This document shows, piece after piece, positions 30,401 through 42,400 of a stretch of DNA of 64,000 nucleotides. Position 1 is the stretch's first letter, and every line of letters begins with the position of its first letter. The position numbers are program-made. The stretch comes from Myxococcales bacterium (GTDB lineage Bacteria; Myxococcota_A; UBA9042). Location of the stretch: the NCBI GenBank assembly GCA_037441385.1, contig JBBISH010000016.1:1-64000 (forward strand). The letters are read 5' to 3'.

Positions 30401-33400
30401 GCACCAGATTCATCCCGATCAAGGCTTTGCTGTTGGCCGGGATGAAGGCCTGCACGGGCAGGTCCCACTGGGCCAGGTTCTGACCGGTGATGGTCTTGTT
30501 GACCTTGACCGTGCTGCTCGGCAGCGAGAACGGCGACGTGGCCTTGGTCGACGGCGAACGCACCATAGTCACGTTCACGTTGGTGATGTTGACCGAGTTA
30601 GGATCCAGACGCAGCGAACTGGGCCCCGAGCCGTTGATCAGCTGCAGCGACGGCAGGTTGTTCTTGACCGACCCGACGAACTTGAACTCGCGCGACAGCG
30701 CCACATCCATCACGCCGTCCAGATAGAAGTTCTGACCGCCGGTGTACGAGCACTGCAAGATGCCGTTGACCACCGTGGCTTGCGGCACCACGTTGCCTTC
30801 GACCGCCAACGCCGTGTTGTTGTAGGAGTCGCAGCCGGCTGCCAACGCGGCCAGTCCCAGGCCCGCGACACCGATGCAGACACGGCGCACCGGCAGCTGG
30901 CGGGTCGCTCCACTAAGCAATCCGTCGAAATTAATCTGCATTCTTGCCTCCTCGCTGCTGTGCAAAACCGCCCGGCAGCGGCGACGACGCGGCCGGCAGG
31001 GAAGTTCGCACATGGGTCGGCGCCGTCGCGCCCAGTTCGGCCAAGCGGGTTTGCCAGAGGCCGGCGTCGACCGCCAGCAACTCAGCATGCCCGACGCCGC
31101 GGAGCAGTGGCAACCACAGCTGGTGCCCGCGGCGTTTCTTGTCAGTAGCGGTCCGCGCCAGCGTAGTGGCGGTCGCCCATCGTTCCCATTGGGTTTCCAA
31201 ACCCAACGCTTCCAGTCCCAGCCGCACCGCTTGCGCTGTGCCGACTTCGGCCAGGCCCAAGCTCTCGGCACACTCGGCCTCGCCCACCAATCCCAGCGCC
31301 ACGGCCTCGCCGTGCAGCACCGCGAACTTGCTCTCGGCTTCGATGGCGTGGCCCAGCGTGTGGCCCAGGTTGAGCAGCGCCCGCGCCGATGCGTGGCCGG
31401 GGCCCTGCCGCTCTTCTGGATCCGCGGCCACCACCGCGGCTTTGTGGCGAATCGCCGCCCGCAGGTGCGGGGTCAGCGCGGCCAGCGAGCGCCGCCGCAA
31501 CGCCGGGGCGTCGGCCAGCAACGCCTGCCAAGCCTGGGTATCAAAGGTAAGGAAAATCTTGGCGATTTCTGCCAGACCGGCCCGGAACTGCCGCGCCGGA
31601 AGGGTCTGCAGGGCCTGCAGCGGCAGCCACACCCACTCGGGGCTGTGGAACGCGCCGACTAGGTTCTTGCCTTCTGGTGTGTCGATCGCGGTCTTGGCGC
31701 CCACCGACGCATCGGCCATCGCCAGCACCGTCGTGGGCAGCAAGGCCGTGCGCATGCCGCGCTGCCAGGTCGCCGCACAAAAGCCGGCCACATCCGTCGT
31801 CGCGCCGCCGCCGATCGCCACCAGCAGATCGCTGCGACCCACGCCGGCGGTGGCTAGCGCCGACCAGATCCGGCTGGCGGTGCGCAGGTCCTTGCACTTC
31901 TCGCCCCCGGCCACTTCGATCACCGCGGTGGCGAGTCCGCGCGCTTGCAGCATCTCGACCAGCGGTTGCGCCCACTTGGCCACGCCCCGATCGATCACCA
32001 GCGCCACCTTGCCGCCCGCCGCCAGCGCCACAATGGCTTCCGCAGCTTGGGCCGGTGCGCCGCCGTGCAGCCACACCGGGTGGGTCTGGGCGGCCACGGT
32101 CGCGTCCAGCACGGGCTCGGCCGGCTCCAGCGCACCCAGCACCGCCGTCACCACCGCGCTCAGCGGTTGCGCCGCGTCGACATGCGCGTGGGCCTTGGCA
32201 TAGATCGGCCGGCGCCGCAGCTCTAGCTCCACGAGCGCTGTGCGTGCGCTTTGCCGCGTGTCGCCCAGCAGCGGCCGGTCGGTGTCGTCGTGCAGGGCGC
32301 GCTCGCTCAGCACGTCGACCGGCGCGTCGAGCCACACCACTTGGGCCTTGTCGCGCATGCGCTCGATGCCATTATGGAAACACGGCGCACCGCCGCCAGC
32401 GGCGATCACGGCGGGCGGACCTGCCAGCACTTGCTCCAGTAGCGCCGCCTCGTGGATGCGAAACACCGTCTCGCCCTCGCGACGTAGCATTTCGGCAGCC
32501 GTGCGGCCACTTTCGCGCTGAAGCACGGCGTCCAGATCCAGGCACGGCATGGCCAGCCGCTCGGCCACACGGGCGGCGACGGCGGTCTTGCCAGCTGCGG
32601 GCATGCCTATGATCACGACGCTTTGCCTCACGCTGATGCCTTGCCTATCCGCCTACTTGCCCACCGTCAAAGACGACGAGCGGTTGACGATGCGGGGGGT
32701 GATGAAGATGAGCAGTTCCGTGCGCTTGTCTTCTTCGCGGCGGGTGCGGAACATCGCGCCGATCAGCGGAATGTCGCCAAAGAACGGCACCTTCTTGGTC
32801 GAGAGCGAGGTGTTGCGGGTATAAATGCCGCCGATCACCGTCGTCTCGCCGTCGCCCAGCAAAAGCTCCGTATTGGCTTCGCGTTGCGTGATGGTCGGGT
32901 TGCCGTCTGCCGCGCGGTTGCTGAAGTCCGGCTCGTTCTTGGTCACGTTCACGGCCAGCTTGACGTTGCCGTCCTGGGTGATATGCGGCGTGGCCGAGAG
33001 CTTCAGGTCGGCGCTGAAGAAGCGCGTCTGCACGCCCTGGGCCGACACGACCGAGATCGGGATCGAGATGCCTTGCTTGATGGTGGCCTGGTAGTTGTCC
33101 AGCGTCAGCACCTTGGGACTCGAGACGATCTTGACCACACCTTCTTGCTCGGCCGCGCTCAAGCGCAGGTTCAAGTTGCCCGCGCCGCCCAGCGAACCCA
33201 AGGTCAGACCGATCGCACCACCGGCGCCGGTACCCACGGCGGCCGGCAGGTTCACGGCGTAGTTCGGAATCGCCGTCGCAACGCCGTCTTTGTTGGGCGC
33301 CTGGCTGTCCGCGCCGCCGCCCACGCCCACCACGCTGGGGAAGGGCAGGCCGGTCTCGTTGCCGTAGACCGAGCTCATGGCGTAGTTGCCGCCCCACTGG

Positions 33401-39400: not shown

Positions 39401-42400
39401 TGTTCAAAGGTCACGACAATTCGACCCACCGGCGCGCCCGACTTCTTGGTCGACTGCACCTCGATGGACCGCACCACGCCGTTGCCCACGTACTTGGGTG
39501 CTTCCAGCCCTTGCACGTCGCTGCCCGCCACGTCGATGAACAGGCGCGAGGGCTTGTCCAGGCGGAAAGTCGTAAACGTAGGCGCCGCCAGACCGCGCAC
39601 CGTGATGACGGTGGTCTGGGTCGCTTCTTGCACGTCGACGGCGGTCAGGGTGTTGCTCGCCTGGCCAGTGCCCTCGGCCGCGAACAAAGGCGTCGCCGGC
39701 AGGGCCATGGTCGTCGACAAGAACAAGCCCATCGACGAGCGCAGCAGCCGCTTGGCCATCGTTTGCTTGGTTCTCATTGCGGTTCTCCTCGCTGGTCTCG
39801 CTCGCCGTCGGCCACGATGGGGCCGCGTCGGGCGGGGTCAGGGTACGTCGCCAACATCTTCGTCGCCGGGTTCGCCCACCGAGATGGGCGGAGCCAGCGA
39901 CAACGTCACCGGTTTCTCTTTGCCGGGCACAGACAGAATCACCTTGTACTGGGTGATCGCCGTCACGCGCGCCCCGTCGTTGCCCAATGCGTCGCCGCGC
40001 ACCACGTCGCAGCGCCCGCCATCGGGATCCGTAAACACGGCCTTGGGTTGCGCCACGCCGGTCATGATCATGAACAGGACATAGCGCTCGATTGGGCCTT
40101 TGGTCGCACAGGTGTCAGGCAGGTCCGCGGGCCGCTCGTCCATGCCCACGGGCTGGTCCACCACGGCTTGCTCGGGCACCTTGGGCCACTCGACGACCTT
40201 GGTCGTGTTGTCCAGCGACCAATTCACCACGCCGTCGATGGGCTCTTTGGTATACCGGTCGAACAAACCCTTGATGGGCCGCCACTTGGGATTCTCGCCC
40301 AACACTTGATACGCGCCCGAGGCGGCGCTGCTGCTCGAGTTGCTGGACTCCGTGCCGGCCAAGCGGTTCAGGGCCTGGTTCATGTCCTTGGGTGGCGGCT
40401 TCTTGGCCTCGCCGCCGCCGCCACATGCCACCAGCGCCAGCGATGCCAACGCCAGCAGCGCGCGCGCCGCTGGCTTGCCCAGCATGTTCAGGACAGCTGA
40501 CTGCAGCATCAGGTCCTCTTCTTCTTCGGCTTTTCGCGCCGAGCCATGCCTTCTTTGAGCTCGGCCGGCTTGCCGGTCCACACAAAGGCGTAGGCGGTAA
40601 AGGTCGCCCGGATGGTCGTGCGGTCGCGCGCCATGTCGGCCATCTCGAACTTCTCGTACAAAATGGCCTCGGGGCTCTTGTTCGTTTCTTGCTTTTTGTC
40701 GCCTTCCACGGGCTTGTGCGCCGAGTCGTAGGCCGCGCGCACCAGACCGGATTCTGGCACCACTGTTTCGACGCTGATGCCCCGGATGTTGATCAGGCGT
40801 CGGCTCATGCCCGCGTACAACCGCAAAAATTCGATGAACTGCTGGACGGTGCCTTCCAACGTCACCTTGATCGGGATGGCGTTGTAGAGGTCTTCGCTCT
40901 CTTCCTGCAGGCGGTCGAAGCGCTTGATGGTCAAGTGGATGTCGGTGGCGTCGGCCTGGACCCCGTCGATGAACTTGGGGATCTCGTCGGCCGAGGGGAA
41001 GCCGGCGCGGCGCCGTTTGTCCTCTTCGACCAGATCGTCCTTCTCTTTGCGCAGCTTGTCCGCCGCCTCGCTACTGGCCGAGGACTTCAGCGCATTGACG
41101 TCGCGCTCCAGCTTGGTCAACTGCGCGCGCGCTTGATCGGCTTTGCCCAACTCGGGATCGACCAGGCCAAAGTACAGGCCCAGCGCGACGACCACCAGGA
41201 TGCCTGCCAACACCGCGGCCTTTTGGGCGGGCGGCAACTTCATGAACTGTTCCATGAGTCCTCCTCCCTTGGGTTATTCCGCTGCCGGCATCTTGTCGGC
41301 CGGTGCAGCTGCGGGTGGTGGTTCGGCGGCTTGATGGGCAGCCGGCATGGCCGCTTTGCCGTCGTCGCGCGGCAACTCGTCGGCCTTGGCTTTGCCGGCC
41401 TCGGCCTTGGCGGGCTCGGCTTTGGGCGCTTCGGCCTTGGCGTCCGGCGCAGTCGCCGTGTCGGGCTCGCTGTCTTTGGCCTCGGCCGGCGTGTCCGGCG
41501 CCGACCCGGCATCGATGTCGTCGGCTGCCGTCGCCGCTGCGGGCAGGGGCAGTGCCACCTTGGTGCCGATGACGGCCGCGTCGTCGCCGGTGCTGCCTGC
41601 GTCGGCGGCGCCGCCATCCGTAGAGCCAGCGTCCGCGCCATTGCCCGCAGCAGCGCCTTCTTCGGGTTTGGCCGGATTCAGCGGTTCGATCAGATAGACC
41701 AGCGAAGCCCGGATCGAGAATTCGACATAGGTGATGCCGATCTGGTCGTCGCGCTTCTTTTCTTGGTAAATCAGCTTGGGTTCGCGGAAGTACGGGCTCG
41801 ACTCCAAGCGCCACTGCAGCTCGGCCACGTCTTCGTGCCCCAGCGCGCGGCCCTGGATGGTCACCTCGCCGCCCGACTCGCGGTACGTCGTGACCCACGC
41901 GCGGCGCGCGTCCCAGCCCACGTGCCAACCCGCGGCCTCAAAGGCCACCAGATCGGCCGTGGGCGTCTCGTGTTGCTGGCGCGGCTGCAGGATGAACGAC
42001 AGGTATTGCAGGGCGCCCGCCGGCCCGTCCTTTTCGGCAAACAGCTCGTCGAGCACGGCCTTCTGATCGCGGAGTTTCTTGATCTCTTCGGTGGCCAGCG
42101 CGATCGCCTTCTTGTTCTCTTCCAGCTTGACGAGCTCCAGCTTGCGCCGCTCGAGCTGGGACTTGGCGCGCGTCGCCTCTTCCGCGGCGGTGTTTTGCCA
42201 CAGATAGAAAACGGCCAGTTCCATGACCAAGAACAGCACGAACAGCAAGATGCCGACGTTGGGGATATCGGGCAGGCGCAAGCCCGCGCCGCCCTTGCGA
42301 CTTTTCTTACCGGCGCCGCCACCGATCAGGTTGATGCGAATCATGCCAGCACCTACCGATCTCCCAGCCGGCGCATCGCCAGACCCACCGCCACGCCCGC

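Follow-up and report, generated by a model that had tools for sequence, protein, structure and literature searches.

Why would the secretin of a type IV pilus carry some 1,600 residues between two of its AMIN domains? Secretins are among the best-studied envelope machines, and their periplasmic parts are seen as compact rings with short, flexible AMIN linkers. The window analyzed here, 64,000 nt of a Myxococcales bacterium genome (contig JBBISH010000016.1, positions 1 to 64,000), contains a gene that a preliminary description had placed in a pilMNOPQ operon as a PilQ secretin two to three times the usual size. Both claims are borne out: there is a single ORF of 2,374 aa, and its profile matches, Pfam domains and neighbors identify the product as a genuine PilQ, the type IVa pilus secretin. 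In an NCBIfam profile search the protein scores 414.7 bits against TIGR02515 (IV_pilus_PilQ; cut-off 284.35), and the other secretin models fall below their own cut-offs on the same protein (GspD 230.7, SctC 147.7 and MshL 110.8 bits). The gene order is pilM-N-O-(P)-Q-aroKB:

42353..43456, minus strand: pilM (PF11104, 240.3 bits; TIGR01175, 246.4 bits)
41274..42548, minus strand: pilN, given as the longest ORF (PF05137, 43.7 bits)
40509..41255, minus strand: pilO (PF04350, 50.7 bits)
39838..40509, minus strand: lipoprotein of 223 aa in PilP's place, from its translation (Met-25 of a 247-aa ORF; lipobox ..LVAC)
32653..39777, minus strand: pilQ, whole gene including the stop codon (2,374 aa; single ORF with an ATG start; TIGR02515 above cut-off)
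30931..32631, minus strand: fused aroK-aroB (shikimate kinase / 3-dehydroquinate synthase), directly downstream of pilQ (profile matches)

PilM, PilN and PilO each exceed their Pfam cut-offs, and pilN probably begins only after the pilM stop at 42353. The lipoprotein has no Pfam match and a weak match to TIGR03021 (pilP_fam; E 0.005, 17.8 bits, under cut-off). A full T4aP set is present elsewhere in the genome, with PilB (774.7 bits, above cut-off), PilC adjoining it, and four PilT-family matches above cut-off.

From its N-terminus, the giant PilQ is laid out as follows:

39676..39777, minus strand: probable Sec signal peptide, residues 1 to ~34 (read by eye from the translation: basic start, hydrophobic stretch, ..LFA/AEG)
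39355..39642, minus strand: AMIN domain 1, residues 46-141 (PF11741, 29.2 bits, profile positions 1-99 of 101)
38491..39330, minus strand: helical N-part of the arm, non-repeat, residues 150-429 (conservation profile; AlphaFold2 helices)
34918..38490, minus strand: six tandem helical modules of ~199 aa, residues 430-1620 (HMM domains; DNA repeat spacing; pairwise identity)
34438..34917, minus strand: helical C-part of the arm, residues 1621-1780 (composition; conservation profile, with the motif ..QQ.RIAvLEaRA..)
34189..34416, minus strand: AMIN domain 2, residues 1788-1863 (PF11741, 32.9 bits; Pfam stretch 1790-1863)
33727..33918, minus strand: N0 / STN domain, residues 1954-2017 (PF07660, 28.7 bits against a cut-off of 28.4, stretch 1972-2017)
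33460..33645, minus strand: N1 (Secretin_N) domain, residues 2045-2106 (PF03958, 56.9 bits against a cut-off of 28.2)
32686..33156, minus strand: secretin pore domain, residues 2208-2364 (PF00263, 162.5 bits against a cut-off of 27.5; 167.9 bits in a second search)

The last 600 residues are an ordinary AMIN-N0-N1-secretin. Both AMIN matches exceed the PF11741 cut-off of 20.5 bits (48.1 bits in total over two stretches in the whole-protein Pfam search), and no AMIN domain beyond these two copies was found in the genome. PF21305 scores 25.4 bits on the N0 region, just below its cut-off, and the PF00263 match spans profile positions 1-168 of 169. Judged by its family membership, the protein would act as a multimeric outer-membrane pore that passes the pilus.

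What distinguishes this PilQ is the arm between its AMIN domains. Residues 150-1780 (1,631 residues) contain no Pro, no Cys, six aromatic residues and very few Gly; Ala (23.9%), Glu (13.4%), Arg (13.1%), Gln (13.1%), Leu (9.4%) and Lys (6.3%) together make up 79%, and self-identity peaks at lags of 199 (29.2%) and 398 residues (23.3%). Recomputation gave exactly the composition and lag figures reported before, and the earlier picture of an all-helical, repetitive insert is supported. The arm is also amphipathic-helical in its make-up: its hydrophobic periodicity peaks at 3.55 residues with a power of 33, against 6 or less elsewhere in the spectrum (199/56 = 3.554).

The arm consists of a 280-aa N-part, six modules of ~199 aa and a 160-aa C-part. 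An HMM built on four copies (residues 430-628, 629-827, 828-1026 and 1027-1224) independently found two further copies outside its seed, at 1225-1419 (E 4e-30) and 1443-1620 (E 2e-22), and matched nothing in the rest of the genome. The modules are 34-62% identical to one another in protein sequence, and the DNA repeats, spaced 597 nt, are 60-78% identical. No tandem DNA repeat of module size was found, and exact repeats within the protein reach no more than 11 aa. A conservation profile indicates sequence-specific conservation along the arm, beyond composition. Furthermore, the N-part and C-part carry family-invariant motifs, which include the only Trp of the region (in the N-part, 150-429) and two of its four Tyr.

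Is this design peculiar to one genome? Among the family gene regions that we fetched, 16 of 20 hold complete genes, of 2,076-2,787 aa, which supports the claim that the long form is inherited. These 16 relatives come from 12 other genera and share the same design, with four to seven modules; module count tracks protein length, and no complete relative examined has lost the outer AMIN domain from the far end. The module has been conserved as one evolutionary unit, in four to seven copies depending on the genus. One genus of the same family (g5) has a PilQ of 1,080-1,116 aa, with a much shorter insert that lacks a module copy; hence, the long arm is not indispensable to the pilus machine. The claim that the long form is not seen in the rest of the phylum was overstated, since many other PilQs contain a helical insert, of 635-1,911 aa. 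Outside the class, open frames among the matches listed reach 1,762 aa (genome G221), 1,686 aa (G168) and 1,597 aa (G259), and database PilQs named Polyangia or Myxococcota bacterium share the AMIN-helical-AMIN design, their inserts being 635-830 aa long. The design is common to many uncultured myxobacterial relatives, and among the genomes sampled only sizes above 2,100 aa are confined to the family of the giant PilQ. Our literature search found no description of a giant PilQ with a helical arm.

The size of the gene could in principle be an artefact, whether of repeat expansion in metagenome assembly, of a chimeric contig or of two genes read as one. The source genome is a 221-contig assembly, and one relative is represented by two records of a single protein, of 2,476 and 2,255 aa, the longer having exactly one additional perfect 221-aa tandem copy, so artefacts or polymorphisms of this kind do occur in the family. 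For the gene studied here, however, repeat collapse is unlikely because the modules are so divergent from each other, with at most 78% identity even in DNA. Independent contig building gave the same sequence: two Logan contigs from the run that is the probable source (X1) cover 32653-35780 and 35753-39777 with 0 differences, and the only break, their 28-nt overlap, is bridged with 0 differences by a 241-nt contig from another sample of the same study (run X2). In all 16 complete relatives, from other genomes, the gene is likewise one open frame that starts with a signal peptide and AMIN domain 1. We conclude that pilQ is intact and correctly assembled, and regard an artefact as very improbable. 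The earlier worry about repeat assembly thus falls away for this gene but holds for at least one relative.

How does the arm fold? The preliminary description had envisaged a very long coiled coil that would measure 240 nm as a single helix, with the remark that the insert must fold back. Two AlphaFold2 models, of parts of the arm ahead of its C-part, agree with the remark and not with the single helix, since both break every ~72 and ~120 residues at conserved turn sites. A two-module model (pLDDT 87.3, pTM 0.59) has helices at 2-49, 52-123, 129-248, 251-322 and 328-397. In a 1,200-residue model of moderate confidence (pLDDT 69.2, pTM 0.33; add 139 to its numbering to reach protein residues) every module shows these breaks again, and pLDDT drops below 50 where modules join; N-part helices are predicted at 152-209, 214-285 and 290-349. 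In the prediction, helices of ~72 and ~120 residues alternate and turn back on one another to form three-helix bundles, whose connecting junctions have low confidence. Each module would be an antiparallel three-helix bundle, with helices of ~48, 72 and 72 residues and a tight turn at a near-invariant Gly, and its third helix would run on into the next module through a junction that tolerates insertions. The arm may then be a chain of about eight or nine ~10-nm bundles, of the order of 60-90 nm in total, a figure obtained by arithmetic at 0.15 nm per residue from helix boundaries, without coordinates. Such a segmented rod, as modelled, would be roughly a third as long as the 240 nm first suggested.

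A structure search placed model residues 1-186/199 and 187-398 each on three-helix BAR-type bundles (Z 10-11.6, rmsd 4-6 Å over ~185-205 residues). With Z values of at most 11.6, below the tool's mark of ~13 for helical bundles, these matches show arrangement and not kinship. Spectrin-type rods likewise have three long antiparallel helices, with repeats linked by a continuous helix, and the predicted arm has the same arrangement. Spectrin has about 30 residues per helix, whereas the PilQ module would have 48, 72 and 72, and the arm would lie in the periplasm. The likeness to spectrin and BAR proteins is of arrangement only; neither family is among the Pfam matches of PilQ at E <= 0.01.

Instead, the inserts of neighboring PilQ subunits might wind around each other as a parallel dimer or trimer, in an unbroken intermolecular coiled coil of up to ~240 nm that runs along the wall or loops within the periplasm. 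Our arm models are monomer predictions, and in the absence of partner chains AlphaFold2 is prone to fold an isolated coiled-coil segment back onto itself. The strong heptad-like hydrophobic periodicity over all 1,631 residues, without Pro and with very few Gly, is consistent with a coiled coil, yet helical bundles are expected to show the same periodicity, so it cannot separate the two. There is also a precedent in SlpA, a connector of the outer membrane to the wall whose solved structure has a homotrimeric coiled coil of ~28 nm between its wall-binding domain and outer-membrane barrel (PMC9388160). A continuous coiled coil should, however, tolerate heptad-sized indels anywhere and would not need a conserved Gly. 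In 50 aligned two-module segments from 17 genomes, the Gly that each module has at one fixed position (Gly50 and Gly249) is 98% conserved, and the helix lengths between breaks, 48 and 72 residues, are strictly kept. Indels in these segments are confined to the module junction (180-193) and to predicted loops (124, 322-323), with none inside helices a and b. Together with the confident fold-back of the two-module model, these observations argue against the continuous coiled coil, which we consider a real but minor possibility.

What is the functional significance of such an arm? We propose that the protein is a PilQ with an enlarged periplasmic front end, in which a modular helical arm separates two AMIN domains, is folded into bundles and acts as a tether or spacer, and we give this proposal an even chance of being right. 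Studied PilQ secretins have 12-15 subunits; at 1,631 residues per subunit, ~20,000 residues per pore would lie in arms. The arms of an assembled secretin would radiate from the pore within the periplasm, each holding AMIN domain 1 on cell-wall sites tens of nanometres away, with a reach set by the number of modules. From this we infer a cell-wall function, in which the arms would either fasten the pilus machine to the wall over a wide area or keep it apart from its neighbors. A whole lineage of uncultured myxobacteria spends ~1,600 residues per subunit on this conserved arm between two wall anchors, and a wider group has shorter versions. If the arm does tether or space, it bears on how pilus machines stay fixed in the wall against retraction forces, and on what determines how many there are at the pole and how far apart they stand. 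Natural variants with four to seven copies of the discrete 199-aa module offer a ready-made length-function series.

The same structure could do another job, either as a long leash that lets AMIN domain 1 find septal wall at division (polar targeting, assembly timing) or as a docking rail for periplasmic partners at the conserved non-repeat motifs. According to a study of Myxococcus xanthus, AMIN domains attach to peptidoglycan at the septum and poles and direct PilQ monomers to both, and polar recruitment of its PilQ requires them (PMC10653833). Furthermore, the invariant motifs of the N-part and C-part look more like binding sites than rod filler. Against this, the same study states that one AMIN domain is enough for targeting in M. 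xanthus (PMC10653833), and AMIN domain 2 already sits beside the pore; no candidate partner gene was found, and module and AMIN occur nowhere else in the genome. Hence, we consider a leash or rail rather unlikely.

A bolder extension of the tether is that the arms of one secretin and of neighboring polar secretins form a spectrin-like elastic periplasmic skeleton, pinned to the wall through AMIN domains, whose three-helix modules unfold and refold under load, buffer retraction pulls of more than 100 pN and set machine spacing, with four to seven modules tuned by lineage. This is improbable but, if true, would give the bacterial periplasm its first described force-bearing repeat-protein skeleton.

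Comparison with known systems places the arm in context. The PilQ of M. xanthus is reportedly 901 aa long, which makes the giant PilQ ~2.6 times longer. The two share the TIGR02515 family, the pilMNOPQ context and AMIN before an N0-N1-secretin core and, by the source names of the near relatives of the giant PilQ, the same phylum. M. xanthus PilQ has three AMIN domains on short flexible linkers, followed by N0, N3 and secretin (PMC10653833); in the giant PilQ, two detectable AMIN domains are joined by a structured helical repeat region of 1,631 residues. The giant PilQ resembles SlpA / OmpM of Deinococcus-Thermus and Negativicutes in its plan, with a wall-binding domain at the N-terminus, a long helical stalk after it and an outer-membrane barrel at the C-terminus; SlpA / OmpM stalks vary in length between lineages, and the proteins are interpreted as connectors or spacers of outer membrane and wall (PMC9388160). 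The parts differ, however: SLH versus AMIN as the wall-binding domain, the ~28-nm homotrimeric coiled coil versus a ~1,600-residue modular region as the stalk, and a porin-type OMBB versus a secretin as the barrel, without sequence relationship. The giant PilQ has no Pfam match to SLH, and the two are alike only in function and architecture. A single printed mention of AMIN with a charged helical region came up in our literature search: architecture viii of de Souza et al. (2008), in which AMIN is joined to a charged helical region of TolA-like type in delta-proteobacteria, listed apart from the PilQ architecture (item iv), not inside a secretin and without repeat or fold analysis (PMC2572700). 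Like the giant PilQ, it has a long charged alpha-helical region after its AMIN domain, and it comes from the same broad bacterial group.

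The following features make up pilQ.

32653..39777, (-) strand: pilQ, a single ATG-started open frame of 2,374 codons
pilQ residues 46-141 and 1788-1863: two AMIN stretches (Pfam and a genome-wide AMIN scan)
pilQ residues 1954-2017: STN/N0 domain (Pfam)
pilQ residues 2045-2106: Secretin_N domain (Pfam, 56.9 bits)
pilQ residues 2208-2364: Secretin domain (Pfam, 162.5 bits)

The NCBI PilQ subfamily model scores 414.7 bits against this protein (cut-off 284.35), and the T2SS, T3SS and MSHA secretin models all stay under their own cut-offs. Immediately 5ʹ of pilQ, on the same strand, lie pilM, pilN, pilO and a gene for a 223-aa lipoprotein with a weak PilP signature; elsewhere in the genome are PilB adjoining PilC, and four PilT-family ATPases above cut-off. 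Together, the model score, the neighbours and the distant motor genes establish, on sequence grounds, a complete type IVa pilus system whose secretin is the pilQ product. The two AMIN matches are the only ones that the genome-wide scan found in the whole assembly. Directly downstream of pilQ is a fused aroK-aroB gene (shikimate kinase / 3-dehydroquinate synthase; 30931-32631, (-) strand), an order that we take to resemble pilMNOPQ-aroK-aroB of Pseudomonas. The pilN open frame (41274-42548, (-) strand) encodes 424 aa, with the PilN domain confined to residues 217-282, and shares about 195 nt with the end of pilM. Two further secretin genes lie on contigs C58 (about 25130-29685) and C22 (about 14793-20726) of the same genome. 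One frame, of 1,041 aa, has T2SS-type ATPase and platform genes next to it, and the other, of 513 aa, has platform-like genes in its vicinity; the source genome therefore has three secretin systems.

Between the AMIN domains, residues 150-1780 contain no proline, no cysteine and six aromatic residues, A, E, R, Q, L and K make up 79%, and self-identity is maximal at lags of 199 (29.2%) and 398 (23.3%) residues; the composition and lags in the preliminary description were reproduced exactly. An HMM built on four copies of the repeat (430-628, 629-827, 828-1026 and 1027-1224) found two more outside its training set, at 1225-1419 and 1443-1620 (E 4e-30 and 2e-22), and had no other match in the rest of the genome. 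The insert thus consists of six tandem modules of ~199 aa, with an N-part of 280 residues before them and a C-part of 160 residues after. The periodicity spectrum of its hydrophobic residues has a sharp peak at 3.55 residues (power 33; no other period exceeds 6). As 199/56 gives the same value, a module accommodates an integral number of hydrophobic turns. On account of this strong periodicity, we reject a single-alpha-helix (ER/K) reading of the arm. In 14 relatives from outside the genus, the arm shows sequence-specific conservation, and the one Trp and two of the four Tyr of the region fall in invariant islands of the N-part and C-part. A 398-aa two-module segment searched against a protein atlas recovered generic coiled-coil clusters alone (best score 0.90, recognition 927), which are unspecific matches. 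We regard as compositional coiled-coil noise both the Pfam “Pedibin” match to pilQ (35 bits, with no single stretch passing alone) and the NCBIfam SMC matches (33.8 and 22.4 bits, where the cut-offs are 567 and 729). Two antisense open frames within pilQ (36031-39108 and 34408-35916, both (+) strand) have no Pfam family and are taken as shadows of a GC-rich, Ala-rich gene.

Is the size of the gene real? Tandem Repeats Finder reported no module-sized repeat in the pilQ DNA. Copies spaced 597 nt apart are 60–78% identical, the six protein modules share 34–62% pairwise identity, and the longest exact repeat inside the protein is 11 residues; the pilQ repeats are old and diverged. In the probable source run, two Logan contigs, products of independent contig building, span 32653-35780 and 35753-39777 with zero differences, and a 241-nt contig from another sample in the same study bridges their 28-nt overlap, again with zero differences. 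Since these runs belong to one study, the agreement represents consistency and not fully independent replication. Runs X3 and X6, from other studies, were left out of the support, as they held only 90–95%-alike pieces of relatives and many chance joints. A survey of sequencing runs for the gene listed none with RNA.

Comparison with relatives gives stronger support for the reality of the gene than does contig agreement. A pilQ orthologue is present in 31 of 31 sampled family genomes, and 16 of 20 fetched family gene regions hold a complete single frame with a signal peptide and the first AMIN domain at its start. These 16 proteins are 2,076-2,787 aa long, counted from chosen starts, and carry 4 to 7 modules by the same HMM, the number rising with protein length; as the HMM derives from the source-genome protein, it may undercount modules in distant relatives. 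One fetched region (G011) is cut at a contig end, and the other shorter family open frames (genomes G027, G030, G014, G002, G009, G025, G020, G029, G024 and G023) may be contig-end fragments; database proteins equal in length to the G027 and G030 frames (1,423 and 1,902 aa) carry the NCBI label “partial”. An assembly artefact as the source of the giant size is very unlikely here. What speaks for it is one relative whose records disagree: record P0005 (2,476 aa) and the PilQ of genome G003 (region L021; 2,255 aa) share a prefix of 665 aa and a suffix of 1,812 aa and are otherwise the same protein, differing by one perfect 221-aa tandem copy. This difference is either a real module copy-number polymorphism or assembly collapse or expansion, and module counts from metagenomes consequently need care. 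The observation of a giant PilQ is confirmed.

How widespread is the long form? Matches at E ≤ 1e-60 were found in 218 of 251 sampled genomes of the phylum. Among the matches listed, with open-frame lengths as upper bounds, complete family members have frames of 2,100-2,830 aa, the 24 matching genomes in other families of the class 607-2,089 aa, and those outside the class mostly 730-1,250 aa, the longest there being 1,762 (G221), 1,686 (G168), 1,597 (G259) and 1,549 aa (G169). The long form had been described as not seen in the rest of the phylum, an overstatement in view of these frames of up to 1,762 aa. Furthermore, among 8,000 candidates scored, 417 database secretins of 1,305-4,155 aa are related to the C-terminal 595 residues of PilQ and, where named, are PilQ of Myxococcales, Deltaproteobacteria, Polyangia or Myxococcota bacteria. 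All 18 that we inspected have an N-terminal AMIN motif followed by a long charged helical stretch; a simple motif rule located both ends of the insert in 11 of them, and these inserts measure 635-1,911 aa, with 0-8 prolines and no cysteine. Given these long-insert proteins in other lineages, the AMIN–helical region–AMIN–secretin design is widespread. The insert sequences are unrelated between lineages, and what is special to the source family, among the matches listed, is the 199-aa module and a size above 2,100 aa. Within that family, three of the 20 fetched regions (L033-L035, genus g5) encode a short PilQ of 1,080-1,116 aa, whose insert lacks the 199-aa module and instead has 12-residue repeats of the AELAQQAEKQRQ type, roughly a dozen of them. 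The arm of this genus seems to be either reduced or of independent origin, and shows that a far shorter insert can serve. In another family of the class (f3), five PilQ matches (G167, G230, G073, G108 and G051) each contain a single in-frame TGA, which might reflect a sequencing feature that recurs, a split gene, or a site of readthrough or selenocysteine insertion.

The preliminary description interpreted the protein as a PilQ secretin with a helical repeat insert that has the make-up of a very long coiled coil. This interpretation is partly supported: the first part stands; for the second, structure models instead predict folded, segmented helices. An AlphaFold2 model of two modules, from an alignment of 50 two-module segments of 17 genomes, has a pLDDT of 87.3 and a pTM of 0.59, with predicted helices at 2-49, 52-123, 129-248, 251-322 and 328-397. 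A 1,200-residue model (PilQ residues 140-1339; 17 aligned sequences) is less confident (pLDDT 69.2, pTM 0.33), with values below 50 in the middle of the long helix, exactly at module junctions. It repeats in every module the alternation of ~72-residue and ~120-residue helices, and gives the N-part a similar set (58/72/60). In structural comparison, both modules of the two-module model matched three-helix BAR-type bundles (Z 10-11.6, rmsd 4-6 Å over ~185-205 residues), although Z below ~13 for helical bundles denotes a common arrangement only, according to the tool's note; Foldseek against the PDB gave no match at E ≤ 0.001. Evidence independent of the predictor points the same way: across the 50 segments, the first-turn glycine is 98% conserved in both modules, helices a and b are of constant length, and indels are confined to predicted loops (after 124, 322-323) or the junction (180-193). 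A continuous intermolecular coiled coil is a possible alternative, because monomer predictions as such favour fold-back, but the conserved glycine and fixed helix lengths speak against it. With predicted helix boundaries at 0.15 nm per residue, the folded arm would be a chain of about eight or nine bundles of ~10 nm each, with a total length of the order of 60-90 nm.

What might such an arm do? The AMIN domains of M. xanthus PilQ bind septal and polar peptidoglycan and are required for its polar recruitment (PMC10653833). There, flexible linkers join three AMIN domains, whereas the protein described here has two, the outer one on a long structured arm. The second AMIN domain would stay beside the pore and the first would be carried at the arm's far end; in the multimer, this would produce a ring of arms, each with a wall anchor at its far end, and module number would set their reach. 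The closest functional analogue is SlpA/OmpM (PMC9388160), a connector or spacer between outer membrane and wall that combines an SLH domain, which binds the wall, with an outer-membrane barrel and a helical stalk whose length differs from lineage to lineage. From AMIN wall binding, the arm's layout and this analogy, we propose that the arm may be a tether or spacer, anchoring the pilus machine over a broad area of wall or separating machines. A leash for polar targeting, or a docking rail, would also fit the conserved arm motifs, but no partner was found. The giant PilQ is of solid interest for pilus and envelope biologists. A full-text literature search, with subscription journals outside its cover, gave, among the papers listed, no title or abstract describing PilQ with a long helical insert; the 2008 AMIN paper (PMC2572700) lists, apart from the PilQ architecture, a delta-proteobacterial one in which AMIN is joined to a TolA-like charged helical region.

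Two other genes in the window were noted. An RpoD-type sigma factor of 904 aa (58392-61106, (+) strand) has an unusually long spacer of ~540 residues between region 1.2 (98-130) and region 2 (670-740). A 1,422-aa protein (51471-55739, (-) strand) has as its sole Pfam match a PMT_2 glycosyltransferase domain at residues 319-462.
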